Part shown: positions 469-54,689 of the stretch, one piece after another
Numbering within the stretch: position 1 is the stretch's first letter
Layout of the letters: each line of letters starts with the position of its first letter
Assembly (NCBI GenBank): GCA_905331295.1
Contig: CAJNYD010000012.1
Location: 186,001 to 250,000 of the forward strand
Direction: 5' to 3'
DNA length: 64,000 bases
Source of the DNA: Rotaria socialis
Taxonomy: Eukaryota
Translations under genes and position numbers: made by a program
Notes under the pieces: model-generated
Database searches by the model: none
Seen by the model: the letters and a program-made list of their open reading frames with translations, nothing else
Told to the model about the DNA's origin: nothing

Positions 469-6299
<5,831 letters not shown>

Positions 6300-18659: not shown

Positions 18660-20521
18660 ATGTCCGCTATGATAGATCATCCGTCGGAGTATTTTCGAAT
18701 ATTTCTTATTATCTTATTTATAATCATTGTTCTTATCGGTTTAATTGGTAATGTTCTTGTTTTATTATCTGTCTTAACAAATCATATCAAAATTCGTCGA
18801 TCATCAACAAATCTTCTTCTTGTTAATATGTCATGTGCTGATTTGATTATTCTTTGTTTTAATATATTCGATATTATGCAGTTTTCCTATGATCGTTCGT
18901 GGCCAGCAGCCTGGTATCTTGGTTTACCATTATGTAAAATTATACGTTTTTCTCAAGTACTTGGTTGCTATGTTAGTGTGCAAACGTTGCTTATTATTAG
19001 CATTGACAGGTAAATCAAAATAAACAAAAAAAAAAAAGAACAGAGGGAATATGTACATCTTTTTTTCTATAGATATATTGCAATAATTCATGCAGTAAAA
19101 CTTTCACATTCTAATCGATGTAAACGTCTTTTATTAATCGTTATCATAATATGGTCGATAGGAATTATAATGGCATCACCTAATTTGTTCTTACTTGTAT
19201 TACATCCAATTCATGATCGTGCCGAATATTATGTTTGTGGCTTATCCGATGACAAAACATATTCATATTTTGTTCTATTTTATAAATATGCGGAATCAAT
19301 ACTTTTCTATTTTATACCCATATTTTTACAAGTAAGCTTTCTATAGAACAGTCAATACTAAATTTTAAGAAACATTCATCTCGAGCGAAAACTTGCTGGA
19401 AAAAGTCTAGGTGTCAATGAAATCGAATGTATATATTCGAGATTAAGAAAAACAGAATATAAAAGTACGTCTGAGAGGTTTTTATTTCATATTACAAATA
19501 CAAAGAAATACTAATAGAGAACTCGGTATAAAGGTTATGACACCAACATAGAATGTATTTAAGATTAAGGTGATTTGTGTCCTTTATAATTTCAACTTGA
19601 ATGTTTTCTGTTATCGAATTCTCTGCGAGTTAAAAAGTTCGTCTTATCGAGTACGAAGAAATCGTTCTTATGACTAGATAAGCTAATAAAACCAAATTAG
19701 ATTATTTCCATACTTGCTTGCAACGGTTAAGCAAGTGTTCTGTCAGATTTGGATGCTTATTTCTTAAAAACAAATTCTCCTTTTTCTTCCATGACAACAC
19801 GTACTTGGCCCACTTTGAATTCAATGCCATTTTTGGCAATAGGACGAGTTAGATATGGATTTGTAAGTTTAACTGACTATGTGATTAGTTGTATATCCAT
19901 TCTTCAGAGTGCCATACCGACGAAATAGAATTACCGCAGACCTAACATGGCTCAACATGTTCTTTTCTTCTATAGGCAATACTTTATTTACTTATTTGTC
20001 GTAAAATATTCTTGGTCGATCGTGCCGTACAAGAATATTGCCGTGCTGATCAAATACAATATTCCATAAGTAATTCTCATCGACAAATTTCAGGAACAAA
20101 AACATCATCATTGCAGCCGGCACATTTAACCGACAATAATATCAGTTTAGTCCCAATGATACCACCACGTTCACAATCTCAGCTAATGCCAGTATCGACT
20201 TCAATGCATAAAATGGGCGATCAAGCACGTAGACGAGCGATTATTATGTTGCTACTGGTTACTACACTTTATTTTATTGCATTTTCACCAGCACAAATCA
20301 ATTTTATCTATACGAAAATAAATCGTTTACATCATTTATATGAAAATCGTCTGTTTTTTATCATGTCAATATTATTAGTTTTATCATCGACAGCTTTTAA
20401 TCCAATATTATTTTATATATTTAGCAAATTTTTTCGACATAAATTTAACATTATTTTACGTAGTCTATTTCCAATATGTCGTGTACGATCACGAAGATCA
20501 AATGAGTTTCCAATGATTTGA
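18660..20521 (+). CDS. Class A (rhodopsin-like) GPCR, neuropeptide-receptor-like; 3 exons (~18660-19009, 19073-19331, 19977-20521)
   Basis: GLIGNVLV (TM1), TNLLLVNMSCADL (TM2), W.LG..LCK, SIDRY across intron 1, ASP (TM4), RRRAIIML...FSP (TM6), STAFNPILF...FR (TM7/H8). Confidence 0.93.
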
Positions 20522-22718: not shown

Positions 22719-25700
22719 ATGGGCTTCATAAAAAAGCTTTACGAGAAATTTGTCGGCCGAGAAAATTTGAGTGCCCCGTGTACTCTTGTTAGCCATGTTT
22801 TCGATGAAGATGATGAAGCTGAATTGTTCTTTGACTTGGTTTTGGCACGTTTTGAAAATTTTGATCAACAAAATAACGCGGTAGGAAACAAATCGTTCTC
22901 CAGTGATGTTGATTTCATTATTCAATGTACTATGGCAAGTCTGTCATCAACCGAACTGTGTAAAAAATTTCAGAATCGTATCGACTCCTATTTATATATT
23001 TATCGTCGAATCGAAGAATATATCGGAATAGTGAAACAATCAGCTTATTGGATACGAGGCTGGGAAAACGATGTTAAACAATTGAAAGAGAAATTATTGC
23101 AATCATTGTCTCGAGTGTTTATTGAAAGTAAAGGTCTACAACCGAATCTTTGTTTAAAAGACGAACAACAATTACGAAAAATAAATATTGTTCAGTACTT
23201 AATAGCAATGACAGAAATTGGTGCAAAAACAATTGACACATTTTTTGTTTTGATTAAATTATCATTTCAATCATCTATTGTGATCGATAAACATGATCGG
23301 CTACAATGGAAAATTATTATATCAAATATAAAATATTTTAAAATTTCCATACAGGAATTTATTTCTAACTATATTACTTACGAATTGGCATTCCGCGAGT
23401 TTTCACTTGATTTGCCGGGCTTCATTGAACTCATTCGGAAAAATCATCCGTCCAAACATTCTGAAGAATCGCCGTTTCTAATATTCTTACGCCTTTCCAA
23501 AGATTTAAATATCAAAACTGAAGAATTTTTTGATCAATATCGAACATTGTTTGAACGTGGTATTAAGGAAAAGTTTTATTGCTTTTCACACATCGGTGAT
23601 TTATTCACTATCATCGGTCGTCACGATCGCGTCTTTGATGTTTATTTCACAATTTATGCTAACAGTGTGGATCTCGATGATCTATGGACAATGTTCATGT
23701 ATCTAAGCACAAAGAGTGAACTGAATGATATAATTCAAAAACACCTTATTTCCAAACTTAGTATTCGTACAGCAGGTGCACCAATTGATAGTTTTCTACG
23801 TTACACAAAATTTGCAACAGAATGCATGACGAAAAAAATCAAACATGAATATCATCCACGTTTTCTGAGGATATTTGAAAATATATTCGAAGGTTTCATC
23901 GGCCATCAGTTGACTGACGAACGATATTCTTATCGTTTTTCTGAGTCAAATTTAAAAGAATTCTTAAAGATCAGTCTTGAAATGTCAACAAGTCATGATC
24001 TACAGCAACCATCTTGTTTGCTCATCGTTCGACGCTTGATATTTCAAAATAGTACTCGGCAATTGAATACAGCTGATAAAACCAAAGGTTTGTTTGAAAA
24101 ACTAAATGATTTTGATCAAAGTTTATGTGAGAAGAACAATCCCGCTGCTATTATTCAAGACGAATGGTTGCAAGACTATCTTCTACTTATTCCTGAAGAT
24201 TTTTTGCGTTATTTCAACGAAAATGTGTACAATTATTTGTGCAATAATCATTTAAATAATCGTTGGACACTTTATATTTGGAGAAGACTAATATATTTGA
24301 GCATTCTCAAATCAAAAGCTGAGAACACGAATGAAATACTTTTGAAAATGAACGAATGGATGCACATTGTCAAGCATGACAACTACAATATCAATGATAC
24401 TTTGACAATCATTTTGATTATCAATCTATTTGAACTTGTTATTGTCAAATATATAAAATCTGTTTTGTCACTTCCGAAGATCGATATTATCATGAATTTT
24501 ATTGTAAATGCCCGACAAGAACAACTACATCAAATGGATACCAAACAAGTAGATGAATTTATTCAAGGCGCTGAAAAATCAATTCAACAGATCTTACTAC
24601 TACAAGGTAAATTCTATCTCAATTTATAGATACTTATACTTTTCCTGTGATAAATCGCATTTAAATCTAGAAGAGATAAAAATTCATTCTTTGACTAGGT
24701 ACTTCGCAATTGTATTCTTCGTCAAACACTTTCTGTTATAGGTCCTTGCGAAAAATATCGTGATCAATCAAATTCAACAATATTATATTGCTTTATGCAG
24801 TACATGGATTTTAAAACAATCATTACATCCATTGATCCAAACCAATATAAATTTCCTCGTCCTACAGAACAGATTGAATTAATTGTATCACCTATACCAG
24901 AAGATATTTATATCACAGACATTAATATCAAGGAACAATATTTTCAACTATTCATTCAACAAGCGAATGAGTGGCTTCGATGGTTTGATAAATTTCTCTT
25001 AGTATTTTTGCATGTTGTCGAATGGTTGAAGAATTGGAATGTCATTGGAGCTGCTCAATTATTTAATGATATGCGTACAGCGCAAAGTAATTCATCAATC
25101 ACAATGATTCAAATGAAAACAACAGTTGAGAAAGCATTAAAACTACTTCGACCTTTTAATGATCTACAACGACTATGCCATCTACTCAATTGTTTAACAT
25201 CTTTTCAATTAATTGACTCTGGTACACAAGGCAATCAAATTATTTCTGAAAATTATATTCGTGAATTAAAACGATTTCAACCTAACAACTCATTCAAGGT
25301 AGATTCCAAAATGATTGCTAAATGCATAATTCCTATCAATGGTCGTCAAAATGTTCAATGGTGTATTGCTAGTGAGAAACTTGCATGTAATATAGAAATA
25401 AACTATCAAACCACTGACTTGAATGATTCTTCTAAATTTTTATGTCGCAAGGAAAAGGTTTCAATCGATAAATATGTTCTACAAGGAGAATATGAGACAC
25501 AAAGAGCTGGCCAGTTAATGATTCTCGTCAATAATGAAACATTTCCAGCTCCACGTACTATATGGTATCGGGTAATACAAACACCGTTATCAACTTCTCA
25601 TCTATTCCATGGTATATTCAATATGTTTTATCAACAATACTCTAAACAATCAATAAAAACAATTAAGGAGAGTGAATTGAGTAATTTGCTCGATAGAGTA

Positions 25701-28700
25701 TTTACATTTATTGATAACCTCTTGCATGGTACTGTAAGTTTAAAAGATATGGCTGATCTTAAAGCCGTATTTTGTGATAAAAACATTCATGTAAAAGAAG
25801 AAGTAAAGAAGCTCTTTAGTAAACGTTCTTCTGAAGAAGGAACAAAAAGAAAACGATCCACGATTGTTATTCGAACAACGATCGATCCCACTGAAAAAGA
25901 AATTGAGCAAGTTTGTGAATGGCTACAGATCTATCAATATTATAGTCATGTTAATATTATCATAAATTGCATTGAAACATTTGATATACTACCAATCGAT
26001 AATGATGATGAGTTGATCGGTCGACTCAAACGCTTGCGTGATGAAAACTGTTCGCTGAAAGAAATTACGCAAACGTACGAAATTGTAAAACGGCAATTTC
26101 AAAATTTATCGAGTCAACATTTACAATTAATTAAAACAGCACTCGAGTGTTCAAATGCTGTTCTAATGATGAAAAAGTATGATTTATATTCACCTCATGG
26201 ACGTCGTCGATTTCAAGAATTACGAGATAATTTAACAACACAATTTCAATTTCAAGAACGTAATAATATGATTCTGAATTCATGGATTATCGCCTATGCA
26301 TTGTGTGAGCCGTTCGTCCTCAAGGCTAATAATTTCGATGAGTTTCTTAATCGCATTGCTGGCTTATCGAAATTTGAAGAAAACTCTCTCAATCACATTC
26401 AAAGTAAGATAGTTATACATTCAACTAAATGACTAGAATAATGAGCTACTTTTTAAACTAAAATCTGACCCAAGCGAAAGACACGCTTGCGTAAACGCCC
26501 GTTTCAGTTAATATTTTCTGACGCGTAAATAAAATAAATTTTGTTTCTGAGAATCTTTATTTTTCAATCTATTAGTTGTCAATGAGAATGTACAAATTGT
26601 TAATATGTGGCTATCAGCAGAAGAAACAACAGTGTTAGATAATGCTCTTTTAACAATGGAGCATTTGTACAAAACCGGTAAAGTTCAGATACGTCTTAGA
26701 CATTTAATGAATGAACAATCTTATTTTGAAATCATCTATTCTATTGATAAATTGGGAACTGAACAGGTGCGAAGAGCTGATTCACAGGATGATGGCTATG
26801 AACAATATAATGATGAAGAACATAATCAACAAAAGTCTAAAACACTAAAATTTACATTGACAATGAGTGACATCGATGATCATAAACGCCAATTAACATT
26901 CTGTAATGTTGATTTACAAGAAAATATGATTTATAGAAAAATATTATTACAAGAACAATTAAAATTATTGAAAATTGTCGAAAAAATTTATTCTATACTT
27001 GTAAAATTAGAAATGACAGGTCATCCAGATTTTCAACTCAGAGAAGAAGACTATGAAATACATGACCGAACTGGTAAGAAATTTTAACAAAGAAAATAAA
27101 TATCGTTTTTGTTTTTTAATTAATAATTAGGCGAAATCGATACGATTCTTACGGATCTAAGAAAAGATCATCGCTTACGAGCGGATCGATTGAAACGTGT
27201 CGTAAAAACTCGCACAGAGAATTTAGAATCAATCTATCGCGCTTTAGAAACTGCTTATGATATATGGATAACAAATTTGGAAAGATTTAGACAGGACAGT
27301 CGTTTATTAAATTTATTCTCAAATCGTCAAATAATGATCCTTATTATTTTATTAACAACATCGACAACGCAAAATCAAATCAAATGTCATTTTCTGGAGA
27401 AATTATCACTATCAAAAGATATCATCAATCATAAGGGCAAGGAACAAAATCTGACCATTCAGTGTTTGATGCATTACTTACGCTCACTGAAAATACGTGA
27501 TTGTGAATTATCTGAAGCTCATGTATCACGTCTGCATGAAACATACAAAATTGCGTCAAATTCTAATGTTGAAATGAGTCTAAAAAAATTGTCCGAATTT
27601 CTGCGAGATTTGTTGAAAAATGGAAGAGAACTATTCAGAAAAAATCCATCAATCAATGAAAATCAACAGTATCTTGTAACACCAAATGCAATGAAACATG
27701 CAACGGATAAAATACCACTCGAGCATGATCTTGATATGGAAACTTGTTGTGTTCTATTGAGTCTATTCAATGATCGACTACCATCTGTCTATCAAATATT
27801 ATGGTGTTCGATTGCTACAGAAGATGATATACACTTGTTCTTCTTACGAGTACGAACATTTCATTGCATGGTATTTGCTGTGATGGAGATCGATAAAATG
27901 CATCATCGTCTTCGAGAATTATTATTAAACGAACAGGATACATTGACGCGACAAGAACAACCTCATGGGACCGTCTATTATTTTTCAAGAGAATTAACAA
28001 CAAATCGGAGAGGCCTAAGACCGTTTCATATCTTACTCAAACATCGAGATCCGAATCAAATTTATACGCAAATAGTTCGATTATTTGGAGAACACAATTA
28101 CACACAACCACAGATTCAAATCATATATGGAAAAGCTGGAATAGGTGAGTTCCGCTTTAGATTTGCGCAGGATTAAGCAAAAGTAGTATAGAAGATGTTC
28201 AGATTAGAGTTAGAATGATGTTCGTTGTGCCATAATTTTATGTTTGACTATCGTTGGAAATTAGAAAAATATTTTGTAATAACGAAATCTGAAATGTTAC
28301 GATAGTCAGCTAGAAAGTCCATCAGAAAGGACAGAATTAGGATCTTAAGTCAGTACCAGAGATGTCCATCGTGGGCGAGACTCTGCCACGCCGCTGCCAC
28401 GTTGGTTATCGATAAAAATCTGTCACTGACGCTGAGATGGCGAGAACGCTATTGCGCTGCCATGAGCACCTCTGGTTTATAAGGCAAGGTATAGAGTGCG
28501 AAAATGTCTTACAGTACAGCAATGTAGTTTATTTCATTCACTTATTTCTCATATCATTTTTTTTCTATTAGGAAAAACTCATTGCATTAATACAAAATAT
28601 AAAGATCAAGATACATCGTGTTTTAGTATTAATGATACACTAAATTTATCATCGTTGATTAGCTCATTCCTATTGTTTGATTCAAGAGGTCGAAACGAAA

Positions 28701-31700
28701 ATCCATCGGTTTCTTTCAATATATCAATTCATGCACCATTTGAAGATCTAAATCGTACTTTCTTGTCGCTTTTTGTTTGTGGATCATTGACTGATGCGAG
28801 TACTGGTCTCACATTTTCTCTACCAGAAAACAAACAATGGAAATTTGTTATTGAAATTCCTCATACAGACAAATATCATATGACAATCAAAGAAAATTTC
28901 GATAAAATTTTACCTTTGTTATCAATTATATCACCATATACATTAGAAGAAGTCACAGACGAAAATTATCAATTATTTATTAACCGAGAAGAAGAACTTG
29001 TTGCACGATTCTTAAAAGCCTATGAAAATCAAACAATCGATCGTCTCATGACAATAAGTCCAACTGGCAAAGACCAACCTGTAAAATTCGAAAAATTGAC
29101 AAATCGCGATGAATGTCGTCAGCAAATATACAACTGTATGACAAAATATGCTCGCGAAATACCAAGAAATAAAATTTCAGAACTCTCTTTCACTAAATTT
29201 TTATATCGTCGTATTCGATTTTTTAAAGGTCATTATTATCGACTTAACATAACTTCTCAGCATCTCGGTTCAACTGTTATGAAACAAATGATTAACGAAG
29301 CTAAGTTTCTTGCTCATATTGATTTTCGACATAATAATTATCCTCGTATTTATCTTGTTTTCGATCCCTATTTTGCCTTACATCTATTACACGATGATTG
29401 GAATAATGTTTCAAAAGACTTGAAGCAACTCTTCAACAACAAAAATCCATCACTGACAGACGATTTTAAGAACAAAGATTATTTTGCTAAATGTTTATCT
29501 TGGCTCATCGATATAAAGTATGATGATTTCATAAGAATAATGAATGAAACAAAATTTATTTTGACCGAAAATTTTGCTTATAAACTTTTTCATGTTCACG
29601 AACGAAAATTAACTAGACTACCATTAATTATCGAAGGTGATACTGGTGTTGGTAAAACATTTCTTCTTAAATTCTATTCATTATTATTGAATTCGAATGT
29701 AATCAATGGTCCAATACATGCCAATATTGCTTCCATAGATGACCATGCTGTTTCAGATGATGAAAATAGTGATTCAACAGATGATAATGATGTTCCAACA
29801 CATGCCAACATCGCTCCACACATTTTAGAACGCACTAGTCTGTGGTTATTGACAACTATCATAAATAATATTTTAAAAAGTGAACCGAATTTATTGAATG
29901 AATTTCTAAAACGAGTAAAACCAAAATTAATGGGACTTGATGACGAGCAAGTGGATCAACCAGAAGTGCCAAACCTCTACCATCAGTTTGTGCCACAATT
30001 TCAAGATACTGATGATGATGATGATAAAAATTTATCGAATGATATTCTCATCCCTCATGAACTACAGCGGGTTGTTCCAACTCCGATGGCACCAGAAGTT
30101 CGGCCAGCAGTACAAGTGATTGATCTTCCACTATTAGAAAAAATAAAAAGTTCATTAGGAAAGTTTGAATACAACAATGATAGTCTACTATATATTTGGA
30201 AAACGATTATGATTATTTCGAGTGAAAATGCAATGAATACGACTCAACAACTTATCATTGCATTGCACAAGCATGTTACAAGTCAATTAACTAGTTATCC
30301 ATTAGCTGAAGCCAGTTTTCAACTTCAAACTTTACTTACCGATTCCCACTCTCCAACTGTACAAAAGTCGATCGAGATTTTTAATGAATATCTAATGCAC
30401 ACACAAACTAAGCCATTATTTTATCGTCTATTATTACATCCAGGCGTAACTGAAGAACAACTCGAAAATTTTATGTCACCCATTCGTCAGTTAGCCCGAG
30501 AACTATCTCATGTCGAATTCGTTGTTTTTTTCGACGAAGTTAATACGGCATCATGTCTTGGTCTGTTCAAAGAGATGTTCATGGATCGAACATTACACGG
30601 ACACAGTCTACCGGAAAATATCTTCTTCACGGCTGCTATTAATCCGTCTATTAAATTAAGTGACGATACTGTTGTTCATCGACAAAATTATCTGGTGCAT
30701 CAATTGCCACAAGCATTGGAAAACTTAAAAGTTTCTTATGGAGCCTTAGAGCCGGCATCATTAAAAGAGTATATTGACAAAAAAATCGCCAAATTTCGTA
30801 TTAATTCTTTAAATAATAGTCAGAAAGTGATGCCATTAGAAGAATATGCCCGAGAAATGCTTGCTGAATCTATTCTTAATGCACAGCATTTCTGTGAAAA
30901 ATATCTCGGTAAATTATTCATTTTGTATTTGAAAATATTCCTAGCAATTTTTATCTGTACTAGGACAAAATTCTGTGTCCCAACGTGAAATTCAAAGATG
31001 CTTTAATTTAATTGAATTCTTTTGGCATATGCGATTTGATGATGAGATCGAAAATGACGGTAACTTGTATCAACCAAATCCTATCCGATGTATTGCATTA
31101 TCATTGGCTTTGATTTATTATTTTCGACTACCAACAGAAGAAGATAATGCACAACGAAATGATAAACAAACGCCAACACGTGAACAACTTGCTAAATTAC
31201 TTTCTCAAACTATACCAGATTTTGTTGATGTCATTCAAAATGAATTGGATAGATTTGTAAATAGTGACAATTTTGTAATTCCACATGCTGTTGCTATCAA
31301 TCAGGCTGTAAGTATTGAATTATATACTATTTTCATACTACTAAAATCTTTCTACTTTGAAGGTTCGCGAACATATATTCGCTATTGTTGTTAGTATCGT
31401 TACTCGAACACCATTGTGTATAATCGGTGCGCCAGGTTAGTAAAACTGTTGTGTATCAGCTGTAACTATGACGCTAAATATATATTTCATTCAAGGTCAA
31501 TCAAAAACATTATCATTTCAAATTGTTTTACAAAATTTGCAAGGTTCACAATTATCGATAAAACCATTTTGTAAACGTTTACCAGCTATTGATCCATTCT
31601 TTTGTCTCGGCTCGAAATATAGTCGCTCTGAAGATATTGCTTATATATTTGAACGAGCTCTTAAACGTGAGCAACAATACGAACAAAATCGCATGGATAC

Positions 31701-34700
31701 ACGTTGTGTAAGTGCTTTGTTTTGCAATTGGAGTAAATTAATATCTTTAAATTGTTTTTTTTTTCTTCTTCGTAGGTTGTTTTCTTAGACGAAGCGTCAT
31801 TACCCGATGAAAAGAAAATGGTACTTAAAGTTTTACATCCCTATTTAGATGAATGTAAAGTTGCATTTGTGGCTATTGCAAATAAATCATTTGATGCTGC
31901 TAATGCAAATAGAATGATTTGTGTTTATCGTTCATTGCCATCTAGAGATGATCAAAATATTTTAGCTTATGGTTGTCTTGGTCTAAAAATGAAAACTAGT
32001 GGCCAACAAGCAGTAGACAATCGTCTTGAAGCAATAATCAATGGTCTTTGTCAAGGATATCGTCGTATATTAGATACGCCGAGTGTTCCTCACATTTATC
32101 ATGATCGTGATTTTATTTATATGCTGCGAGAATTAAGATTCGAATTAACAACAACAACAACAGATGATCAAGAGACACGCGTCACTGGAATAACGCCACT
32201 AAGTCTTCTACGAGCATTAGAAGATAATTTCAATGGAGTTAAAAGAGATGAATTTGAAAAATTAGTTGAAATATTTTTTCAAGCTGTTCAAGAGCAATGT
32301 CCTGACTTTCGACTACCACCAAATCGTCGTAATGTACCGACTATTCTACGTGAATCAATGAAACTTGATTCACAACATCGCCGTCTTTATGGTCGTTATA
32401 AATTAATCATTGATGAATCCGAAGATGAAAGTGCTGTTCGTTTAATATCGCAAAATGGAATAGTAGATCTGGATCCTAATCGAACAACTGTTTTTCGAAT
32501 GTCAGATTTTGCCGATGATATTCATAATGAACTACGTAATGTTGAAATATTATCAACAATAAAATTATGTATGGAAACAGGTAAAACAATATTGATGGTC
32601 AATACAGGACGAATTCATGGTTCCCTGTATGATGTTTTTAATCAAAATTTTTCAATAATGGCTACTGGAGATATGAGAAAGATCTTTTCAAAAGTCGCCA
32701 TAGGTCCTAAAACAATTGATGTTGTTGTTCATGAAGATTTTCAATGTATTGTACATGTCAAACGAAGTGAATTCGCGACGATTCCAGCACCATTTCTAAG
32801 TCGTTTTCAAAAATATTCCTTGAGTGTCAACGATTTCTATCGAATTCAATTCGAACAACTTTCGATTAATGAACAGACAATTATGAAAAATGTAGAAGAA
32901 AAATTACAGATATTCATTCAACATTTTGGACGACAATATTTTTATGGATTAAATGAGAATACATTATACTCTTGTTTATTATCACTTATTAAAAAAAAAG
33001 AAAATGATCAAAGTTATTTTCTTAATACTTACCAACATTATTCACAATTAACCATTAGATCAAAACATTTTATTGAACAAAATCCAAGTGATATTCAATT
33101 GTGTGTGTTACGTTCGGTAATATCAAAATTGATTCAACTTGTTTCACCCGAATCAATTATTTTGAAATTACCAACTTTTGAAGATAAAATGGCACGATGG
33201 TTATGCACAAATTATTTTCATCAACAAGAGCATTTTCATATTGAGAATTTTATTCAACAATTAATATCAAATCCATCTCTGGGCCTTCAAAATGACGATT
33301 TATTAACCACAATGAATACAAATGTAAATACATTAAATGATATTGGTATTATAAGAAAAGTAATGATATTTACACGAACATCATCTTATATCGTTGGTCT
33401 CAATGAACAATCGAACTATGAACTATTTGGTGGTTTAGATGATAATGAATATTGTGACAAAATTGAAAATATTGATATACTAAATTTGGTCAGTTTTTCC
33501 TATAGACTGGCCAGGTTCACCATGAAAACACTAGTTTTCCCTTCGTGTGCACAATCCCTGTGGGACTAAAACAAGGGGAAAGCGGCGGACTTGAAGTAGA
33601 AAAGTAGTTGTGCAACTTTTATGTAACTTCAAGTAAATTTGAAGTCGAAAAATTCTTCGAAGTTTACCGCTGGAAGTAGCTCAAAGTTACTTCAAGTCCA
33701 AAAGCTCGGCGTTTCCCCTTTGGGTTAAAATATAAAACTGCTTTTCTGGAACCCGTCTACCACAGTCAGTGAGTCTTTGCACATTTTCTATTACGATCTG
33801 TGGTGACCTATGGAGCTTCTCTGACATGATCTGTGGGGCTCAAATGTCTACTCTATATACTTTAACACTCCTTTTAGTTTGTGTCTCACAAAAGATACGA
33901 CTACCAGTTGTCGAGTTAAGTCATATCAATAGTCTCCCCCCCACCCCACACACACCCTTCCACTCTTACTCTAATACATCTATAACAAATATATATCATT
34001 TAGGCTGTCATCGAAAATTCGATGGAACTCGAAGAAAAATTTCAAGTCTTTGAAAAACATGAAACGAAAAATGTTTTAATCGTTATTATCAATGCACGAA
34101 TCATTCAACAACGTTTACACATTCCATACGTACGACAATTAATTGATAAAACAGAATATTCGTGTAATGCACTCGATAGAAAACAAGATAAATATTTTCT
34201 TATGCTGGTACATTCGCCACCACAAGAACAATATCATCAGTCATCTTTTCCCTCCATTTTCTTGCACAGTTGGGACTTTTATTTCTTCGATAGTTGTGCA
34301 CCAGGTAGTGCATTTCATCTCCAAAAGATGTTACAAATTGTATCATCCTCTTTCGATCAACAACAAGAATCATTCGATAATGCTTTATGTGATTTAAATA
34401 TATTATTCGATGATTGCTTGTGGGACTTTTGTTCACGAATTCAAATAGGTTTACAAGAGTTACCACAAGATATGTTTAAGAATAGATTCGCTTTTGAATT
34501 CTACAAATCGCAAACAAGTACATTACGACGTGTACAATGTTTAAAACAGATTCTTCAACAATCACGACAATTACAAAATCACATTGTAACCATTTATCAT
34601 GATCATTCATCGAATAAAAAAGAATCCTCAAAAAAGATTTACAATTCAATTTATCAAATTTCTAAAGATATTGTTTGTGGCAAACGATTCGATGGTCTAG

Positions 34701-37700
34701 TCGAATCTATTCAATCGGAAACTCGGATGTCATTTACAAACTTTGTTTCAAATGTATTTAAATTTATCGTTAACGATTATGGTTTGGAAACTTTATCAAC
34801 ATTATCAAATATGCTAAATGGATATGGTTCAATGTTAGAATTAATCGACTATTCATCGTTTGCAATAGATGAGAATCAAGATAAACTTTCTCCAATACAA
34901 CAAGGAATATTTCAACTCATTACACATTATACTTGTATTCCACAAACACCACTCTATTATTTATTTCATCAACGAATCAAGACCTGTGCTGAAAATATCA
35001 ATTTAAAGCAAATTCTCAAACAAACCAAGCAAAAAGGTTCGCATGAATTTGTATCTTATAAGAATTCTCCGAAGTATTAAGGCAGGACATTTGTATAGAT
35101 TGCTCAAAGTCACATTCCTACTTAAAATTTCATAGAAATATTTCCTCTCTTCTATTTAGGGAAAGATGATGTTCCACGCCAACATTATTATTCCGTTCCA
35201 CCAATTACCACAGCTGATAACAATTGTGATGATGGCGATGATGAAAACGAACAAACTGAATATACATTCGAACAATTTCGATATGAATTAATGAAATCAA
35301 TTTTAAATGATAAAATTTTAACTGATATCATTAATGAAAACATTCTTAATTCTTATTCAAATGATCTTGTTCGAACATTTTGCACCATTGTCGAGAAAAA
35401 TTTCGATGATAATTTTATCCTATGCCAAAAAACAGTCGAATTTGTTTCACGTTGGTTATTACTCGTCGATGATAATGATCAACAATCTCTATCAGAGTGT
35501 TCAAATAGACATATTTGGCTTCTCGCTCATGCTTATACATCATTTGAATATGATCAAAATGATCTTTTTTCTCTATATTCAGCTTGTCGAATTATGGATA
35601 GACTCGATTCAACCCAATCATTTTATGATCGTCTATTGCACGATAATCATATAACAACACGTTCCGAAGTACGTGAAACATTATTTCGATTTATGTTTGA
35701 TTATCTATGGAAAAATCTTTGTGAATTTTGTTCAAAAAATAATACAAACGATGAATGGATTCATATTTATACATTTATTTCGAAATATTATCCATCAGAT
35801 AAAGTTTTACAACGTATACAACTTATTGAAATCAAAGAACAAATTGAATTTATGAATTTAGCATATCTTATTCTAATCAATGATACAACACCTGAACCGA
35901 AAAATCTTATATCTCGTCTATTGAATGATATACATCTTGTTCATATCAATAATAATAATAATATATTTAGAAATCAAAGCAAATCTGTCTATCTGAAATT
36001 ATTGGTCACTATTATTGATTATATTCAATCATATTTAGAAAATAGAAATGCTCAAAATTCAACATTAATGATCGATTTACAACAATGGATAGTTTCCATG
36101 TTAAAATCATCTACAGAATCATGTAAAGAAGAAATTGGAAATCTTTTTATAGGCTTAAATAAATCAAGTTATCGTTTATCATTACCTATGAAACAACTTT
36201 TATTCGATAAATTAGCTAATTTATATTTAGAATCTGTACGACAAAATAGACCAACAACCGATGCTTGGGATCGTCTTATAACACTTTTACCATTGGTTAT
36301 CGAATGTCTAGAAGATGAAAATGTTTTCAATGGATACCAATTGCCTTATCATCCATCGATTATAACTGATGATAATAATCAACGACAACCATTAATCGAT
36401 TTATTCTTTTTCTATCTTCAACGATATTTTCACGATGAAACAATTAAATGTAGTTTTGTTAATAAAATCATACGACCAAACTTACCAAATACAAAATTTA
36501 AATATCCAAAATTAGCGACAGAAATTTTCAAGAAATTAAAAGATTATTTTCTAGTACGATTAACTGCTTTACTTCTATGTCAAACAGATGTATCTCCTGA
36601 TGATCAGCGAATAATCAGTCGAATTACAACGGCAATTATTACTGAATATTTGTTGATTGATCGAACAGCGATTCAACTTACTCAGCATCTTCAAATATTT
36701 CTCTCAACTATTATATCAAAACGATCGTGGAGTTATCTCTTCATTTTATTAAAGTCGGATCATATACAATGTTTGAATAGTCAATGGGCAAATACTCTTT
36801 GTAGTCTATTAGAAATGACAAAGACAACAGAAAATAACAAATATATTCAATTATGTCATAAAATACAGTTCACGTTATCGTCAAATAATGCATCCTCTAT
36901 ATTTCCTAAATTGCATCAAGCATATGAACAGTTGAAAGACATTGTACGTGAATGTGTCACGGAAAATGTCGTTGAAGGACGATGGAAGAAGCTATCGGAT
37001 TGGGTTCAATTACAACAAAACATGAATCCTCCTGTCCTGGATTTGAAAGAAATCAAAATCATGTTATTATTAAATATTTATTATGATTATTATTGCAGTA
37101 ACCAGTTGGAGTCTCTTAATACGCTCATAGTATTCATTGAAAGCACATTGGAACCATTACCAGAAGAATTACAAGTATTTCGTGTTATGTTGCAACCTGA
37201 ACAATTTATGATTGGATACCCGAGAAGAAATGGGAATGTAGAAAATAATTTTCTAAACAGTTTATTTAAAGTTGATTGTCAAGATGAAGACGAATTATGT
37301 ATTCGCCATTCGCTTGTGAATCTCATTGCTATGATTCTAATGGGTGGAAAACAAAGTTTCCTTTGGACATCTACATTCAATCCTTTGAAACTACAGAATA
37401 CATTTGGTAAGTATTCATTTGATGAAATTTTTCTATTGACTGCGGTGTTGACTCTTGCAGTCGACAAATTCTTTCGAAACAAGAAAATAATTTTGAGATC
37501 CAACCAACTCTACACATGTCGATAATCAAAGAAAATAATTTTATTTATTTTCTACATTAGGGTTTGGATCAACAGCACATCAAATCATTCAAAGTAACGG
37601 TGTACATTATGATTGTGGTTGTATTATCACACAAAACGGAGATTTAATGCAATTCGAACGAGCACATGCGAGTGCACTCAATGTGCCAGCTGTTTATGTT

Positions 37701-40700
37701 GCATATTTTTCAACATTTGGTGCTTTAGTAAGTTATTTGTTCATCATAAGCGTATCATCGTTTTCTTAATATTATCATATAGGCTTGGCATTTATTATTA
37801 TTTAGTGAATCTGTTCAAAATCTTCATGGTCCTATATTAGCACGACATGCTATTGCTGATAACACCGCTGAAGGTCGTCTTGCAGGCAATAACGATCGAA
37901 CGAAAGTGTGTCATTTTATTCGTGCTCGATTATTGTCGACGTTCAGTTTCTTGTCAGTACGTTCGAATCAAGATGATGCATGCATTCTTTTGAATCGTTG
38001 CTTTGAACAAATGGCTCTGTTAACTATTAACCATCAACAAGCAGAAAATTCTTGGATTAAACCCGTTTTTAACACGTTAAACGATGAATTGAAAGCTGAA
38101 GAAGAATATCAAAATCATGTATTCTATTTTGTACATGGAAAATTAGCAGAATATAAAGCATACATTAATCATTTGAATTTACAATCACAAATACAAACAA
38201 ATTTACAAAATTTTATTACACAAATGCCAATTACCATTCAATTTCTACATTTTAAAACTGAATTGCACAATCCTATTCATTCTGCGCTACCACTTAAAAT
38301 CTTACGACATGTTCTTGATTCTATGGATTTTCTTAAGATTACTAGATGGATCTATGATCTTAGTCAATTCTATATTCTTCTACATCAAACATACACTCAA
38401 TTAATTGAACAAAATGAATTTCATACAATAACGTTAGAAGAATTGTATAATCGAGGTGAAAAACATTTCAACCAACCAAATAATTTCGAATATTATCATA
38501 GAAACAATAATTATTCATCAATTATTGATAAAGGAATTCAAAGTGTCAATGCCTATCACAGCTTTACTGATGGTCTCATTCGACCGGGTGCTTGTGATCA
38601 AATGCAACGTTTCACCATAATTACACGGGACACACCCATACACTATCTAGTTACAACAGCAAATTATGATGAAGGAGATATTGTTATGCGCATACTCAGG
38701 TATTTCTACTTAGAATCTATTCATTCTATATGACACAATTGTAATTCCATGGGCCATGATAACGAAAAAATCGGATCCCTTTACATACTGTACTTTTTCA
38801 CTTGACTATAATCGTATCTAATAAGCAGTATCACTCCTTGACTAGCTGATTTAAAATATGAGTTGCCCAAAGCATTCAACAAGAAAGATCAATATCTTTA
38901 ATTCACAGTAGACAATATTCTATGACAGAAATCTGTACATCGTTGCTCTACATATATCAACTTTTAGTGATGCGAGCTATCCTTTTTTTGATCCTACCTG
39001 AGATAAACTATTGTTTTTTCCATGATTAAGCTCGAACTCTAGTATCGACTACGGTCTTTTTTACCTCGTATGAAAATCGATCTCTCAATTCTTGTTCTTC
39101 TTTTGATTTCGTAGCTGAAAAGAAAAGTCAATGAACTTCAAGAAAAAGATCATGTATTTCCTAGACTTTTATTAGACTTCGTTTTATGTTGCGTATTTTA
39201 GTGTTCTAATCGACTATCACAATAGTCTATTGAATTCGCTCGAAAAAGAAACGAATGAAAATGACAACAATATGTTTGGTACGTTAAAAAGTTTAGCTAA
39301 TAAATTAACTTCAAAAGAAGTTTCAATTCTTCAAATTATACATGATAATACTGGCGTAATTACATTGACCGACAATGATTGCCTATGGATCGAACAGTTG
39401 TCTTGTGCTACTCTTATCAATGACAACGATGAATACTTTCAAAAAGCTGATACACAAATTAATTTTAATTTTGTCTATCTTCAATCGTATATTATTCGAA
39501 CATATCTTTTATTATGTCGTATTAATTATCGGCATATCATTCAAAATTATCGATGTCATATTAAACGAACACAAATCAGCACCGATGGCGAACTATTAGA
39601 TCTTGACGAAAAGTATTCGATTCAAATGAATCGTGAACAATTAGAAACCGATTGGAATCATTTGAAAGAAATATATTTAGATAAATTATATCATGGTCAT
39701 AATCTACTACGACAAATAGCTATTTTATTGAAAAATAATCAAGACGATTTGTCTCAAGTAAATCTTTATGAATTTATCCAATCATTAGGAGACGATAATC
39801 AGTTGTTCAAACAAACAAAACAATATGAAATTAAAGATTTTCAATTATGTTATATTGATCATGTTCGACAATTATATGCTAATTCAATTAGTGGTTTTCA
39901 ACATTTATTTACTGATATATCTCAATTGCTTCGAACTTCAATTGATTATCAACTTGATGAAGAACTCAGTCAAAACTTAACAGCAACAATAATTAGCATT
40001 GATGATAATAAAGATATTGAGAAAATAAAATCAACAATACAAACAATAACTGATCTATTAACGGATTTGAGATCAGTTGAACATTTTCTACTGCGTCAAT
40101 CGAACCATTCATTAACAAACACGTGTGAAATTTTAGAGATTCAAAATTCTATTCTTGATTTAATACCACATGAAATAAAATGTGAAAATTATGTTGCTGT
40201 TAGCATTCATTTGATTCGCATGCGAACAATTCTTCAAGAAAGAATTGTCAATATCGAAGAGAAGCAAAGTAAACAATGGAATGAAAACTTTGACGTTCAA
40301 TCCAATGACCAACAGCCGGAACAAGAAAATTGTTTTCTTAATTTTCTCAATGAACCATCAACATCGGATACAACACCGAAAAATAACACTGGATCAGATG
40401 ATGATTATGATGATATATGGAGAGGAATTCCGAGTAGTATACCTAATGAACTGATAAAAGATAATTTACTTGGCAAACAAGATTTTCCTCAACAACGTCG
40501 AAATTCAACTATTCAACAAACAACAATCGAAGAATATTTAGAATATTCATCTCTATTTGAATTAAATCTTAAATTTGTTCCGTTAACATTATCAACTTTA
40601 TTCGATCAAATTCATAAACAATTTGAGCAAGCTCAAACCCAAACTGTGGCCTTGAACAAAGCACAAAAATTCGTTGTCACATATACAGACGGAAAGTCAC

Positions 40701-42647
40701 GCGGATCTTTGTGGAGGACTGAAAATTTATTTGAAAAACTCCGTAATTTGTTCGAGAAAGAGAAATTCGATATGAATACATATACTGTTATTGATAAAAA
40801 TGAAATTTGTGTCGATTTCACGAATATAAATGCTCGATTACCGCATGAAATATCTCTCGAATATTTTATTATTGAAAAAACTCTGTTATTTTCAATTCAA
40901 TTTAATTATCAGAAAAAATTATTCGACTATTCCGCTACGTCTAAAAGTAATATATCTACAATAATCGATCGTTTTATCCATGATAATGACATCAAACTCT
41001 TATCAAACAATAACTACCTCTGTTTCTTCGATGAGCATGGGAAAACTATCGAAAATGGAACCATCGCTGATCTAATTAATCAATCAGATCATCCTGACAA
41101 GAAAAAAATTTCGATAACAGTCAACGAAGAAGATAATAAAACGAGCATGCTGTGCGAAATCACTATACGATCGAAACAAAGTAATAAGTTTTTTTTAATC
41201 TTGAACTATACTAATATTCATTGATTTAGATAATGAACAAATCAGTTTATTTGATCCAAACACGCAATGGAAACAGATTGATCAATGGTTGAAACATTTC
41301 AATCAATTCATCGATGCTCCTATAAACGACTATGCTTATCTTCATAAAGAGCTAAAAACAATCATCGATGAAAATCAGTCGATTAGTTTTATCATTGGTG
41401 AACCAACAAAATCAATAATCATCGATGGAGTTAATCGAGGTGCGACAACTCAAGTGACATTCTCCTATGAAACCAATTGTGTATCATTACGTGTACTAAA
41501 GTCGATGAGAATTTGTTATATATTAAATAATGAACGTCTTCTAAGAGAATTGTGTCTTATTGATATATCTCCAAATGATTGTGTTCTTGTATTAGGAGAA
41601 GTCAACGAAAAAGTTTTATCACAGAATGATATTCAACAGCCTATTAGTAATTATTTCCTTAGTGAAGATCAACCAATTCATTTTCGAATATCAATCGCTG
41701 TTCAAATATTGAAATATGATGATGAACAGCCTATACAAATTCTTCTGTCAAATAGAAGTGCAACTATGGAACATGTCTTTCAATTGGCAAAGGCTTCAAT
41801 TGATATCTACAAATATTTAGCTTCGAATTATACAAAGAAGATCGTCGATTTTAGTGAAAAACTATCAAATTTGAGGGATACAAAATTTATTCTTGTCAAA
41901 GAACATGAAACATGTCTCGTAGCAATTGAAAAATCAAAAATAAGTCAATTAATTGATGTCGACGATGAGGCCAACGAATCTTATTATCAACGATTTACTA
42001 TATTTGCTACGATCGGCGATATTTATAGAGAAAATAAAATAGATATCGATCATCAACATCTTCTATGTTCTGAAGATTTTGTTCCATCGATACAAACCAA
42101 GGTACTTTCATTTTCATCCGTCTCACCAATTCGATTTACGTTGATTGATGGAAATTTACCAGTAACAGTAGTTGTTCTAAATAATGAAAATCAAAAATCA
42201 ATCACTTTTAATTGCTCAATGACGATCACGGTGAAGCGTTTGTCATTCATTGCTTGTCAATTGTTCGGTCTTAACAGCAATTATTATCGATTGAAACAAT
42301 CAGATTATGATCTCGATGATGATACTGTTTCTTTAGAAGATATTGATTCCACGATGACTCAAATCGAATTACAGTTAATTTCAATAGCATCCATCAACAG
42401 TTCGATCAAATATGGCAATCAAACAATTGTCTTGCCCTGTTCTTGTGATACATCAACAGCAACAATCATTGATGAAACATTGCAGAAGCTGTATCTTCCA
42501 CAAGAAAGTCATCATATGTATGAATTAACTGCATTGGTTGACGATGGGATCCCTATAGAAGAGGTTATGTCTATTGAGGATATCTATGCATTATTTCCTT
42601 CTCGTCCGACAATGATACCGTTCGAATTAACAAAAAAAATTGACTAG
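22719..42647 (+). CDS. Giant RNF213/mysterin-like multi-AAA+ ATPase, ~5,833 aa, 15 exons
   Basis: Exons read by eye: 22719-24606, 24742-26403, 26576-27073, 27131-28144, 28572-30908, 30964-31307, 31363-31435, 31496-31707, 31776-33488, 34004-35036, 35160-37406, 37561-37727, 37783-38699, 39202-41180, 41230-42647. All introns are GT-AG and in frame; total 17,502 nt. RNF213-type motifs appear in order: RLPSVYQILWC, IYGKAGIGKT, PLIIEGDTGVGKT...VVFFDEVNT...FTAAINP...YLVHQLP...VSQREIQRC, PLCIIGAPGQSKTLS...VVFLDEASL...LKVLHPYLD...VAFVAIANKSFDAANANR, RDFIYML, IKLCMETGKTILMVN...SLYDVFNQNF...VHEDFQCIV...PFLSRFQK. An upstream exon is possible (acceptor-like site at 22687). Confidence 0.92.
28356..28475. 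mobile_element. Short GC-rich MITE-like element in intron 4 of the RNF213-like gene
   Basis: Ends ccagagatgtccat ... atgagcacctctgg are imperfect inverted repeats; no clear TSD. Confidence 0.5.
33502..33760. mobile_element. Fold-back MITE-like element in intron 9 of the RNF213-like gene
   Basis: Internal inverted pairs aaggggaaa/tttcccctt and ggacttgaagta/tacttcaagtcc; loosely inverted ends tagactgg...ccgtcta. Confidence 0.55.
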
Positions 42648-42717
42648 AAATAAATTCGTTTTCTAATTCATTTAATAAGAACTTTCATTTCAACGTTCAC
42701 TTTTATTTTAAACATGA

Positions 42718-43020
42718 CCCAGGAGAATCAGGGTACGTCGGAATCGGTTCCGTTGAATCCCGATGATTTCCTAACTTACGAATTCCGGTCCAAATTTCGT
42801 TGGGACCATTTCCGATCAATTCCCATCGGTTCCATCGATTTCCGACGAATGCCGGGTCAAAATTTTGCGGAACTTAACGGAATTTTTCTGGCGGAAATTG
42901 GACCAGAATCCGTTAGTAGGAAATCGTTGGAATTTAACGGAGCTGTCCGAAAAGCAACGGAATCCATAGGATCCGATGCCGGAAACGATCGGATCCACTG
43001 ATCGGATTGAATCTCCTGGG
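42718..43020. mobile_element. ~300 bp MITE with CCCAGG...CCTGGG ends, 70 bp after the RNF213-like stop codon
   Basis: TIR cccaggagaatca / tgaatctcctggg (1 mismatch in 13). GC-rich interior built of ttccg/cggaa motifs. Confidence 0.75.
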
Positions 43021-43626
43021 AAGACTAAAATTTACCTTTTCAGCCTTTACTATTTTATTCAAATTACATATATACTTGAAGATTAAAAGAATAAAAAAAA
43101 GTTTTATTTATGATTTTTTTCACAAACTTTGCCTACGAATTGCAATCAACGTTTAGCAAATCTAAAGTTGTATAATATATTGCTATAACTACATTTATCA
43201 CTGACGTGTACAGACGCCTAGTTGCTCAACAACCGTAATATTTTTGAAACTATACAAACAGATTTTTCTTAATGAATAGTCATTGAGAATCCATCGAAAA
43301 CTATTTCAATGAAGACAATCTAAATTTTCACTCAAGAAGTTTTGTTCCTCTATAAGATTCTAAGCTCGCAAAAAACTTGAGCCACTTTGAACAGTTTTGA
43401 AAAGAAATAAAACTACTAAAACTGATATTATTTATTATATAATTCAATCCTACATTGTTGCAAAAACAAATTATTCAACAATATTTAATTGAACATAGTC
43501 AAAAAAGATATTTCGAAGACTTTTATTTTGTCCACTGTTTGATTAGACCAATTAGTATTACCATGTAATAAATAGTTTGATCAATCTTCTTTTAGACTCG
43601 AAATTTAAGGGTATTCTTAAAACCCT

Positions 43627-46600
43627 TAATAGATTTTTCTAACCTAATACATACAGAGATAAGTCAAAGGTGAATTTAATCTAAAATACAAAAGTCTCCA
43701 GTTCTTCAATAAAATAGTAACAACATACTTGTACTTTCATTTGAAACATAGAGACATGCCCTAGATGAAAACATCCGTTACGTATATGATCAAATCCAGT
43801 ACTATTCCCGATGCGGTATTGTGGGGACCAAGATTAAAATAAAATACGGTTCGTACACGTACCGTATGTCATCGTAAACGGTCGTATCCGATAAAAATAT
43901 GGATAACCATAACCTTCATCTTGAAGCGTAGCATCTAAAAAAGAACATCATTATGTATGTTAGATACTTTCTTAATAGATTAAATTCGTAAAGAAAACTT
44001 AGCGTTTCTCTTTTATTCGAAATGGTTTTACTGACTTGAAGCATTATATACTCAGTAATTATAATTAAGAATCAAACTCAAAGAAGTAATATAGGAGGCA
44101 TATTAAATTGCCATTTTTTTCTATAGGACATGTTATCGAGCTTGATTTCACGAAAAGATTTCATACGGATGCTAAAAGATGAAAATTTTTGTTGAGGTTT
44201 TAGTGGTATGTTCATTTTTTTAATAATGATGAACAGCTACTCGTTTCTATTATGTTTTATATTAGATACCACAAAAACATCACCTCCTAAACGTCTAAAT
44301 GAAGAAACGACTTCATAACTTAACTTTTCTTAGCTAGATTGAGTTAAAAGATTTATTTATGAGGTTAAGACATAAATATGTATAATGTTAAAATGTTTTC
44401 GTTGCCATGAGAGCTCTTTAAAAGTAGATACTTCTGTAAATCTTGTAAGTGGTTTCAAATATAGTAAAACTCAGTCGAAAATTTTGATGTTCCAATTCAA
44501 CAATAAATGTATTTTCGTACTATTTCTTGAACTGTTTGAACACAGTATGTAGAAAATTATTCAATAGTAATGACTGACATATTATTGAAGACCAACGCTT
44601 AGCACTTTTAATGTTACAAACTAATAACTGATGTTGTTTTCTTATGAGAGAACATTATCAATAAGATTCTCTATTCTACTTTAAGAAATGAACTTTCTGC
44701 TTGAGCTTCCCTCTAAATAAAATTGTCTGCCAAAAATGGCCAACTTAACCTATTTCATCCGTTACTAGAAGACACCAAAACATATGAACAATTAGCGATA
44801 TATGTTCTGTGTTCTTTGGCGCAAGTTTACCACATCAGTCTGTGGTCATTACCTGTATGATTCGTTAGGTTCGACATTAAGTTGAATTATTTTCTCAATT
44901 ACTTTCAATGAGTTCAAGTTGATGATTGTTTTAGAAGACTATGAAATAAGCTAATTGGATCGTTGAAAATAAGTATAGCTTGCAATTACTTTATTTTCAA
45001 AAAATAGTGTTTTTTCTAGAAAAAGATATAAAAACACATTCCTTTGAGAAAAGCAAGGAACTTCTATGTACATACGCAAAATCTATATTGAATTCATACA
45101 ATTAGTAGTCTCCTGAAGTATGAAAGAAAGCACTGAATATAGCCTATCGGATTAACTAGTATCTGCGTATATTATAACATTATGTAGAGAAGCCAATGCC
45201 AATTGTTACTGGTCTACATGATATTCTTCTTAAAATAATATCTACTACAATTTCTAGATTTAATCTGTCTCCTTTTAAAAACAATATTCTGAATAAGCAT
45301 GATGGCAATCGTGCGATGAACATAAGGATACAGCGAATAGAATGATGTACATGAAGTGAACCGTAACGGTAAAAACTGTTACAGATAGTATTGCTCATGA
45401 ATGTATGTGTATGATTCGGATATATATTCCTATACAGTATATCATGGTTGTGATGTTGGAAATGTGAAGAAAAGTTTGGTTGTAACTGTAAAGGACAAGG
45501 GAGCTTATCGAATTACTTAATGCATATTGATGTCAAATGATAGGCGATAAACAAAACATGGGTATTGATTGTTTTTAGTTCACTCTTCCTATAGAGAAAT
45601 ATCCAGGAAGTGCCCTGAAAGACTTCATATTGCAGACGAACATCTTGGTATTGAAACCATTAATTTTAAAGATCACGATGCAACCATAAAAATTCTTGAA
45701 ATGATGCTTTCTTAAATAAAAGAATCAAAAATTCTTTTACGTTCGTGAACGTGTTCATTGTTTATTAGAAGCAGCTGGTTTCGGGTATGCTAAATCTCTT
45801 TTACATAGAATCGAGCTTTTTCTTTCAATTTAGAGAGACGTATGCATAAACATTGGAAAATGTGTCTAGAAAATATTTTTCAGTTGAATCGGATCCAACA
45901 TTAGTTGTTTTAAATCATATTCAGCTGAGTTAAATATCTGAATGTTACCACAAATTCGATGATAACGAGTCTGAATCATTGCAATGCTAATTTATTTATT
46001 TTTCATAGTTGGAATAAACATTGGAACATTGTGTATTCCTCAAGAGGAAAAGACTGCATTGTAGATTGTCGACAGCTTTACACATCTATTCATAATCGAA
46101 ATGAAGTTTTAGTAATGCATTTTCAAATTCAACTGACTATATGTAATAGAACGAAACTGCTAAATTTCAGATACTAATTTCTTCAAAGGTGCTGTGGATT
46201 TAGAATTTATGAATTATTACATGTTCCAAAGGAGCGAAGTGTACTGTAGTCGATCGAATTTTTTCGTGATGGAAAAACCATTAGTTTTATAACATCAAGG
46301 ATGCTATTTTCAATGATGTATTGGATTTGAAATTTAGTTTCTTCTTTCGTTCGGTTACCAAAAATATTGCTTTTTGCGAAACAGATTGAAAAATGTGTCC
46401 TCTCCCACTCTCACAGCCTGCTTGCTTTGAAACGGTAAAAACCACTTAGTGAGTTATTCTTTTCTCTGTTAAGTTCCTACGGTCTGATAAGTTTTGAACA
46501 AATAACATGCATCGATCGAGCTCATGCATTACAATTGCTAGAGAGAATGACTGATGTTCTTTCGAAAAAAATTCCTGTACAAATTTTTCTTTTGCAAAGT

Positions 46601-48235: not shown

Positions 48236-48240
48236 TCATC
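44560..48240 (+). pseudogene. Decayed, unidentified, probably multi-exon protein-coding gene within arm A (mirror copy on - strand in arm A')
   Basis: Protein-like frames broken by stops, e.g. YVEKPMPIVTGLHDILLKIISTTISRFNLSPFKNNILNKH, NQKFFYVRERVHCLLEAAGFGYAKSLLHRIELF, YGLISFEQITCIDRAHALQLLERMTDVLSKKIPVQIFLLQSQKPDMKIFDKTDFNGDYDVLYFG, HERWILVGSARHIGIERGLL. Acceptor-like ttttctacttttacag at ~46755. Confidence 0.45.
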
Positions 48241-54688: not shown

Positions 54689-54689
54689 N

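Follow-up and report, generated by a model that had tools for sequence, protein, structure and literature searches.

In this work we analyzed a window of 64,000 bp (the whole stretch of DNA under study) from the bdelloid rotifer Rotaria socialis and found in it an intact 15-exon gene, located on the + strand at 22719–42647 bp, that encodes a giant AAA+ protein of the RNF213 family (5,833 amino acids, aa). The protein is homologous to RNF213 in its stalk, AAA core, E3 (ubiquitin ligase) core and C-terminal domain (CTD), has lost both the RING and the RZ finger, carries a conserved Asp-Cys pair at the place of the RZ finger, and belongs to a separate clade, an ancient sister of RNF213, which in humans is an antibacterial ubiquitin ligase. 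Tentatively, it can be hypothesized that it is an ATP-switched cytosolic defence scaffold, in which Cys4359 would replace the RZ nucleophile and the C-terminal tail would mimic polyubiquitin.

To our knowledge, of the proteins built on this scaffold only RNF213 has been studied well, and it is considered to rely entirely on its RZ finger. No paper on a finger-less RNF213 clade or on rotifer RNF213 was found in the open-access text searched, outside which most subscription journals lie. The 5,833-aa protein itself is present in a public record, but without a name.

Gene structure and the AAA core

Six-frame translation revealed a run of large + strand open reading frames (ORFs) from 22.7 to 42.6 kb in DNA with a GC content of 31%. 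In-frame GT-AG junctions were scored and the model was then corrected by hand. The exons are located at 22719–24606, 24742–26403, 26576–27073, 27131–28144 and 28572–30908 (exons 1–5), 30964–31307, 31363–31435, 31496–31707, 31776–33488 and 34004–35036 (exons 6–10), and 35160–37406, 37561–37727, 37783–38699, 39202–41180 and 41230–42647 (exons 11–15). All 14 introns are of the GT-AG type, with lengths from 49 to 515 nt, and the product contains a single stop codon, the terminal one. This agrees with the initial annotation, made from the sequence alone, which described 15 exons joined in frame without stops. The product is identical at 5,833 of 5,833 positions to P0083 [NCBI CAF3171488.1, "unnamed protein product [Rotaria socialis]"], a record that is itself a gene prediction, possibly from the same DNA, and not transcript evidence for the splicing.

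All 14 exon junctions are covered by homologues, mostly aligned without gaps (2 of 2 at aa 630, 27 of 27 at aa 2581, 17 of 18 at aa 4341, 14 of 15 at aa 4396, 13 of 14 at aa 4702 and 7 of 11 at aa 5362). The weakest junction, at aa 3592, lies in a low-complexity stretch, with 12 of 22 homologues ungapped. Single ORFs of 5,000–5,900 aa were found in transcriptome-derived records of distant relatives (Gefionella, Sulcionema, Diplonema). A pseudogene or a chimeric gene model was rejected.

The stalk or linker and the start of the AAA ring (25599–28128, + strand; aa 915–1650) were aligned by hhalign with RZ-type proteins (probability 97.1, E 5e-11, 594 columns). In the following AAA core single boundaries were drawn for AAA2, AAA3 and AAA4, and not for AAA1, AAA5 and AAA6. 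A motif scan located the Walker A motif of AAA2 (28129–28579, +), GKAGIGKT, at aa 1683–1690, where it is split by intron 4. AAA3 (29636–30538, +), recognised by its motifs and a match to Protein Data Bank (PDB) sequences, contains GDTGVGKT at aa 2043 and the Walker B motif FFDE at aa 2340, separated by a partly acidic insertion of ~230 aa. AAA4 (31426–31793, +), recognised by motifs and profile alignment, contains GAPGQSKT at aa 2603, split by intron 7, and VVFLDE at aa 2677. The Walker motifs of AAA3 and AAA4 are intact and conserved.

A nucleotide site in AAA2 and catalytic motifs in AAA3 and AAA4 are thus present, as in an RNF213-type core, and the three P-loops, FFDE and VVFLDE stand in the order that had been described at first. 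These motifs fit the pattern of RNF213, in which, according to the consulted part of PMC7311170, the AAA2 site is structural while AAA3 and AAA4 are catalytic; by analogy, the AAA2 site of the rotifer protein is likely to be a structural ATP site. The distance from Walker A to Walker B in AAA3 is 296 aa, with 176–317 aa in seven other members of the clade versus 56–64 aa in four RZ-type proteins; in the eight members measured the long insertion is common to the finger-less clade.

When exons 5 and 9 were compared with PDB sequences, only RNF213 entries were revealed at E<1e-3 (exon 9 against human RNF213: E 7e-20). Identity with midasin or dynein, the alternative named in the initial annotation, was rejected: neither was among the PDB sequence matches, dynein appeared only at Foldseek E>1 with the model of the E3 region, and RNF213 was the best match in both comparisons.

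E3 scaffold and the loop at the RZ-finger site

The E3 core and CTD scaffold (36983–40261, + strand; aa 4200–5055) is the homologue of the RNF213 E3 module. Its hhalign alignment with RZ-bearing proteins (99.5%, E 2.5e-22, 719 columns) reaches the end of the CTD. An AlphaFold2 model of this region was built from 56 sequences (predicted local distance difference test, pLDDT, 86.9; predicted template modelling score, pTM, 0.51). In a Foldseek search with this model ranks 1–9 all belonged to RNF213 (E 9e-11 to 5.5e-7) and the next match had E 0.24; comparison by VIA with the human E3 module 9JWG gave Z 21.2 for 483 aligned residues with a root-mean-square deviation (rmsd) of 29 Å. According to the profile-profile alignment and the Foldseek and VIA matches, the RNF213 E3 scaffold is retained. 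The architecture, initially described as rebuilt, is not rebuilt in the E3 core and CTD, where those 719 columns align with RZ-type RNF213.

It should be mentioned that the homology of the E3 region is visible by profile-profile and structure comparison only. PDB searches by phmmer with a homologue of 3,139 aa and by hmmsearch with two E3-region profiles produced no RNF213 match, and the ESM Atlas gave no usable match for the E3 region of one paralogue. Where the E3 back/shell would be expected there is a helical region of matching length, but with an hhalign probability of only 0.1.

Neither zinc finger was detected, as the initial annotation had stated for a C3HC4 RING and a canonical RZ finger. 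The large exon ORFs had no Pfam match to RING or RZ, and exon 12 had none at E<=10. A Cys-motif scan of the whole product found no RING or RZ pattern; the same RING pattern detects the RING of P0341. The RZ finger is defined in the consulted parts of PMC11549300 and PMC12075652 by four zinc ligands and a Cys/His dyad. This finger, with three Cys and one His as ligands, is absent by Pfam and profile alignment. An ordinary RNF213 orthologue was rejected, the RING and RZ being absent and the clade separate.

In the profile alignment the place opposite the RZ finger is taken by a gap and a short loop, the latter from exon 12 (37561–37727, + strand). The loop contains the motif HYDCGC (37605–37622) with Cys4359 at 37614–37616. 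All distinct segments of >=40% identity, near-copies among them, have this motif unchanged (36 of 36), and only one other invariant run of at least five residues, WHLLL, was found after the AAA ring. Distant homologues came from a profile search of 1.8 billion representatives (304 matches at E<=0.001, the best 150 listed) and from a search with a sponge homologue (204 matches, 120 listed). Among 78 of them Asp4358 is present in 72, Cys4359 in 62 and Gly4367 in 69–70, figures that are inflated and lean upward because the set was gathered with motif-containing profiles. Asp4358 and Cys4359 rank second and fifth among the columns of this profile. A Cys occurs no more than three residues after the Asp in 69 of the 78, and the commonest substitute for Cys4359 is Ser (5). 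After thinning to 46 sequences of <45% identity, 41 keep the Asp and 35 the Cys. Named carriers of the motif are sponges (Oscarella, Sycon), diplonemids, the malawimonad Gefionella, Picozoa and the heteroloboseans Pharyngomonas and Willaertia; the Cys is lost in some sponge paralogues.

The loop after Cys4359 has low model confidence (pLDDT 60–66). This would fit a mobile element; the RZ finger itself is described as mobile (PMC12075652, in the part consulted). Judging from alignment and model, if another nucleophile takes over, the strongest candidate is this Asp-Cys pair, nearly invariant and set in a poorly ordered loop where RZ-type proteins have the finger.

Two relatives carry other features. 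In P0034, an unnamed relative, a Cys-rich finger occupies residues ~1610–1650, where the Asp-Cys region would be expected; we presume that it resembles the RBR RING2. P0326 carries Pfam PF22191 and PF22605. This suggests a third plug-in.

Accessory modules and spread of the clade

The N-terminal ~800 aa (22719–25265, + strand) are among the most variable parts of the protein, with 36–56% identity to five bdelloid homologues. Their fold was not recognised: they have no Pfam match, and the profile probability against RZ-type N-termini is 0.1. No Pfam or profile match to CBM20 was found in the N-arm. Further along it, aa 805–915 (25266–25598, +) are predicted from a weak profile match to be a GOLD-like beta-sandwich, seen in bdelloid members only. 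Nine of 13 aligned members match PF25099 (GOLD_PATL1_C; best E 3.3e-6), the R. socialis copy alone giving no match, and the GOLD profile had 0 matches among PDB sequences. Between two Rotaria species the N-terminus and GOLD part is the most diverged (86–89% versus 92–98% elsewhere, by identity only and not by the ratio of nonsynonymous to synonymous substitutions), which echoes the fast evolution of the RNF213 N-arm noted in the consulted part of PMC11549300.

At the opposite end (40652–42644, + strand) the protein carries a predicted tandem array of seven, probably eight, ubiquitin-like beta-grasp domains (Ubls). The array was revealed in an AlphaFold2 model of the last 650 aa of P0082, which is 94% identical (pLDDT 83.6). 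By secondary-structure pattern seven repeats are complete and one is partial; the latter, the first in order, lies only partly inside the model and is probably an eighth domain. The best Foldseek matches were linear tetra-ubiquitin (E 2.5e-14) and the USP7 UBL array, and single repeats (the last two and a middle one) matched Ubls with VIA Z 10.4–11.9. There is no GG in aa 5150–5833, and a check of 10 paralogues found no [RL]GG within the last 700 aa of any of them; a cleavable polyubiquitin precursor or a conjugatable modifier was rejected, as the di-glycine is absent.

Among 25 bdelloid proteins of at least 4,200 aa (27 rows less two non-bdelloid ones), 21 extend into the tail and the other four stop earlier, three of them at an exon boundary. 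Neither the tail nor the GOLD profile matched any of 59 distant full-length relatives. The extra modules noted at first are real, and the GOLD-like insert, the ubiquitin-like tail and several paralogues were seen only in bdelloids among the sequences examined.

The AAA-core phylogeny proposed in the initial annotation was built from 668 columns (a quick IQ-TREE run without bootstrap on 54 of the 131 rows, with fish RNF213 as the only root) and revealed a distinct clade. A branch of 0.78 (Shimodaira–Hasegawa-like approximate likelihood ratio test, SH-aLRT, 100) divides 13 rows of the RZ side from 41 others; FastTree on all 131 rows gave the same split with support 0.963. Fish, Glomeromycota, ciliates, a dinoflagellate and a diplonemid constitute the RZ side, where 10 of 13 rows have the RZ finger. 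The rotifer protein is located outside this RZ-type clade, and of the 41 rows on its side 31 contain the motif region, four are shorter or fragmentary, and six are long and lack it.

Because sponge and protist members share one clade apart from RZ-type RNF213, the finger-less design is, on this tree, ancient and not lineage-specific. Thus, of the divergent lineage-specific subfamily initially proposed, the separate clade and the bdelloid-only extra modules stood, while the design itself proved to be old and present in sponges and protists. Diplonema papillatum carries both types, the RZ-type P0342 and the finger-less P0155, as would be expected after an early duplication.

The bdelloid sequences group in a single clade (support 100) and include several paralogues from each species: R. 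socialis, for instance, has P0083, P0044 and P0263, and A. steineri has six records, in counts that mix alleles and ohnologues. The finger-less clade as a whole is patchily distributed, with paralogue expansions in bdelloids and sponges. Bdelloids are the only bilaterians among its named members (120 of 204 matches listed). The approximately unbiased test did not reject a single clade of bdelloids and the nearest named sponge sequences (p 0.36); horizontal transfer and loss in other animals are both compatible with the tree. Varied accessory domains, namely SPRY, SAM, VWA, SH3 and extra AAA units, were observed in clade members P0152, P0236, P0035, P0294, P0036, P0264 and P0306. In P0056 (A. 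steineri) Ig/FN3 domains precede the AAA core, which may be a fusion made by gene prediction.

The label of an immune machine, given in the initial annotation, is inferred by analogy with RNF213. A housekeeping role, such as quality control of lipid droplets, membranes or organelles in which the GOLD-like domain would attach the protein to membranes or lipids, would suit the presence of the family in free-living protists and the nature of the GOLD match, which is to patellin-type domains. However, we consider it rather improbable, as the patchy spread, the bdelloid and sponge expansions and the variable accessory domains (SPRY, SAM, VWA, SH3, FN3) would be typical of conflict systems. In the fungal-infection supplements of PMC11258130, 0 matches for RNF213, RN213 or mysterin were found in 12 of 16 files, a set that does not include the largest table, MOESM5, in which the genes may stand under other ids. 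Two number matches there were rejected as unrelated orthogroup ids.

Proposed mechanism and comparison with known systems

By analogy with RNF213, the E3 activity of which requires ATP binding at AAA3/4 (PMC12075652, in the part consulted), the putative defence scaffold would have its E3 pocket gated by ATP binding at AAA3/AAA4. The variable N-arm, with the GOLD-like domain in the place of CBM20, would pick a membrane or microbial surface, which the protein would then coat; both steps are again modelled on RNF213. The Asp-Cys loop is a candidate zinc-free catalytic cysteine for ubiquitin-type transfer. For RNF213, the consulted parts of PMC12075652 and PMC11549300, together with a preprint on ZNFX1 (10.1101/2025.09.05.674436), describe how ubiquitin passes from a CTD-docked E2 to the Cys of the RZ finger, where a His acts as the general base. 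The tail may represent a built-in polyubiquitin mimic, with a precedent in the two tandem Ubls of OASL, reported to mimic polyubiquitin (PMC6019448). A broader supposition, about which we are more doubtful, is that of an ancient second class of RNF213-type E3 with a zinc-free Asp-Cys loop, which in bdelloids would have been expanded and fused to a polyubiquitin mimic and would arrive already "ubiquitylated".

Several observations weigh against a catalytic Cys4359, besides the inflated conservation figures. The E3 model superimposes on RNF213 with a template modelling score of 0.22–0.24 and an rmsd of ~30 Å, and at its pTM the geometry of the pocket is not fixed. The CTD Trp that docks E2 in RNF213 (mouse W5097), the loss of which abolishes activity according to PMC12075652, is replaced here by His5003, and relatives have Gln, Asp, Ser or other residues at this position (by MAFFT and hhalign, not by structure). 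A general-base His is not conserved near the Cys, His4356 being present in 19 of 78 distant homologues only, and hhalign pairs Cys4359 with the first RZ zinc ligand and not with the RZ nucleophile. No Cys is present at the site in 9 of the 78, and the motif region has no significant match in the six long clade members (Seminavis, Prymnesium, Chrysophaeum, Pelomyxa, Nowakowskiella, Polysphondylium). Finally, in 8 of the 59 distant full-length relatives fewer than 600 aa follow the motif, which leaves no room for a CTD, yet the majority of the eight retain the Asp-Cys; some are perhaps truncated gene calls.

The replaced E2-docking Trp, the missing general base and the pairing of Cys4359 with a zinc ligand would suit an E3-dead scaffold, which we regard as a serious if doubtful possibility. 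Such a protein would be an ATP-driven coat or signalling platform in which the Asp-Cys loop is a structural element or what is left of the RZ finger's first hairpin, and its 7–8 predicted Ubls would supply a "ubiquitylated" signal or bind the proteasome, p97 or autophagy adaptors without catalysis. RNF213 with a dead RZ finger still coats Toxoplasma vacuoles (PMC11549300, in the part consulted). However, a purely structural role would hardly account for a Cys that is invariant although its loop is poorly ordered, and the tail, being absent from all distant full-length relatives, provides no explanation of the ancient family.

Retention of the Asp-Cys in relatives without a CTD is consistent with other thiol chemistry. 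The Cys might bind a metal together with Cys4361 or Cys4667, work as a redox switch, or serve as a nucleophile in a reaction that involves not ubiquitin but another Ubl, an acyl group or protease-like chemistry. Cys4667 is found in 40 of 58 aligned distant homologues, and bdelloids retain H-x-D-C-x-C. This explanation seems unlikely to us, since Cys4361 (28 of 78) and His4356 are too rare for a shared metal site and the 4667 column holds a Cys in RZ-type proteins too.

A second old clade with a different conserved Cys at the RZ site makes it possible to ask at one residue, Cys4359, if catalytic plug-ins other than the RZ finger can work on this scaffold, and bears on what the coupling of AAA core to E3 does without an RZ finger. 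The fused tail of seven or eight predicted Ubls is relevant to how ubiquitin promotes cooperative growth of the RNF213 coat. A candidate defence gene family is also named here for bdelloid rotifers, for which databases give unnamed proteins only.

The neighbours of the giant gene, at 867–5479 (−), 8756–11295 (−), 18630–20518 (+) and 63492–63998 (−), are ordinary genes; among them Pfam recognised TPR proteins and a rhodopsin-family G-protein-coupled receptor, and by eye we take others to be a ROCK/MRCK-type kinase and the end of a voltage-gated K+ channel. No defence cluster was found among the neighbours within the window. Directly downstream there is a large inverted duplication (43627–48981 and 51137–59116; arms of ~5 kb in total with 92–98% complementarity), which surrounds an N gap near 49.0–49.3 kb and contains no long ORF. 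Either a genuine palindrome or the joining of two haplotypes during assembly could account for this duplication. A Thr/Ser-rich, mucin-like tandem-repeat ORF (51736–52137, −) is inserted in one arm. Two short GC-richer elements with internal inverted repeats, at 42654–43030, right after the stop codon, and at 61153–61500, look like insertions of the miniature inverted-repeat transposable element type.

Comparison with known systems revealed that the rotifer protein shares with vertebrate RNF213/mysterin (PDB 6TAX, 7OIK, 8S24, 9JWG; catfish rnf213-alpha, P0341) the stalk, dynein-like AAA core, E3 core and CTD in the same order. It differs in having no RING, no RZ finger and no CBM20 match, with the Asp-Cys loop at the RZ site instead, in the absence of the E2-docking Trp, and in its separate clade; the ~230-aa AAA3 insertion, the GOLD-like insert and the 650-aa predicted ubiquitin-like tail are added. 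Like the transthiolating RZ-finger E3s (RNF213, ZNFX1), it has one conserved Cys at this position of the scaffold, within an element that is probably mobile, but it lacks the four-ligand zinc pattern and the general-base His. The RING-less RNF213 proteins of fungi and protists (Rhizophagus P0333, Gymnodinium P0324, Diplonema papillatum P0342) have the same scaffold and likewise no RING, whereas they possess an RZ finger of their own and a short AAA3 and are located on the other side of the deepest branch. Finally, the predicted tail resembles tandem Ubl arrays (linear polyubiquitin, USP7 UBL1-5, OASL, FAT10/ISG15) in its head-to-tail beta-grasp domains. In contrast to them, it has at most ~20% identity to ubiquitin-like chains, is fused to an AAA+ machine and, because the di-glycine is absent, is not cleavable or conjugatable in the usual way.

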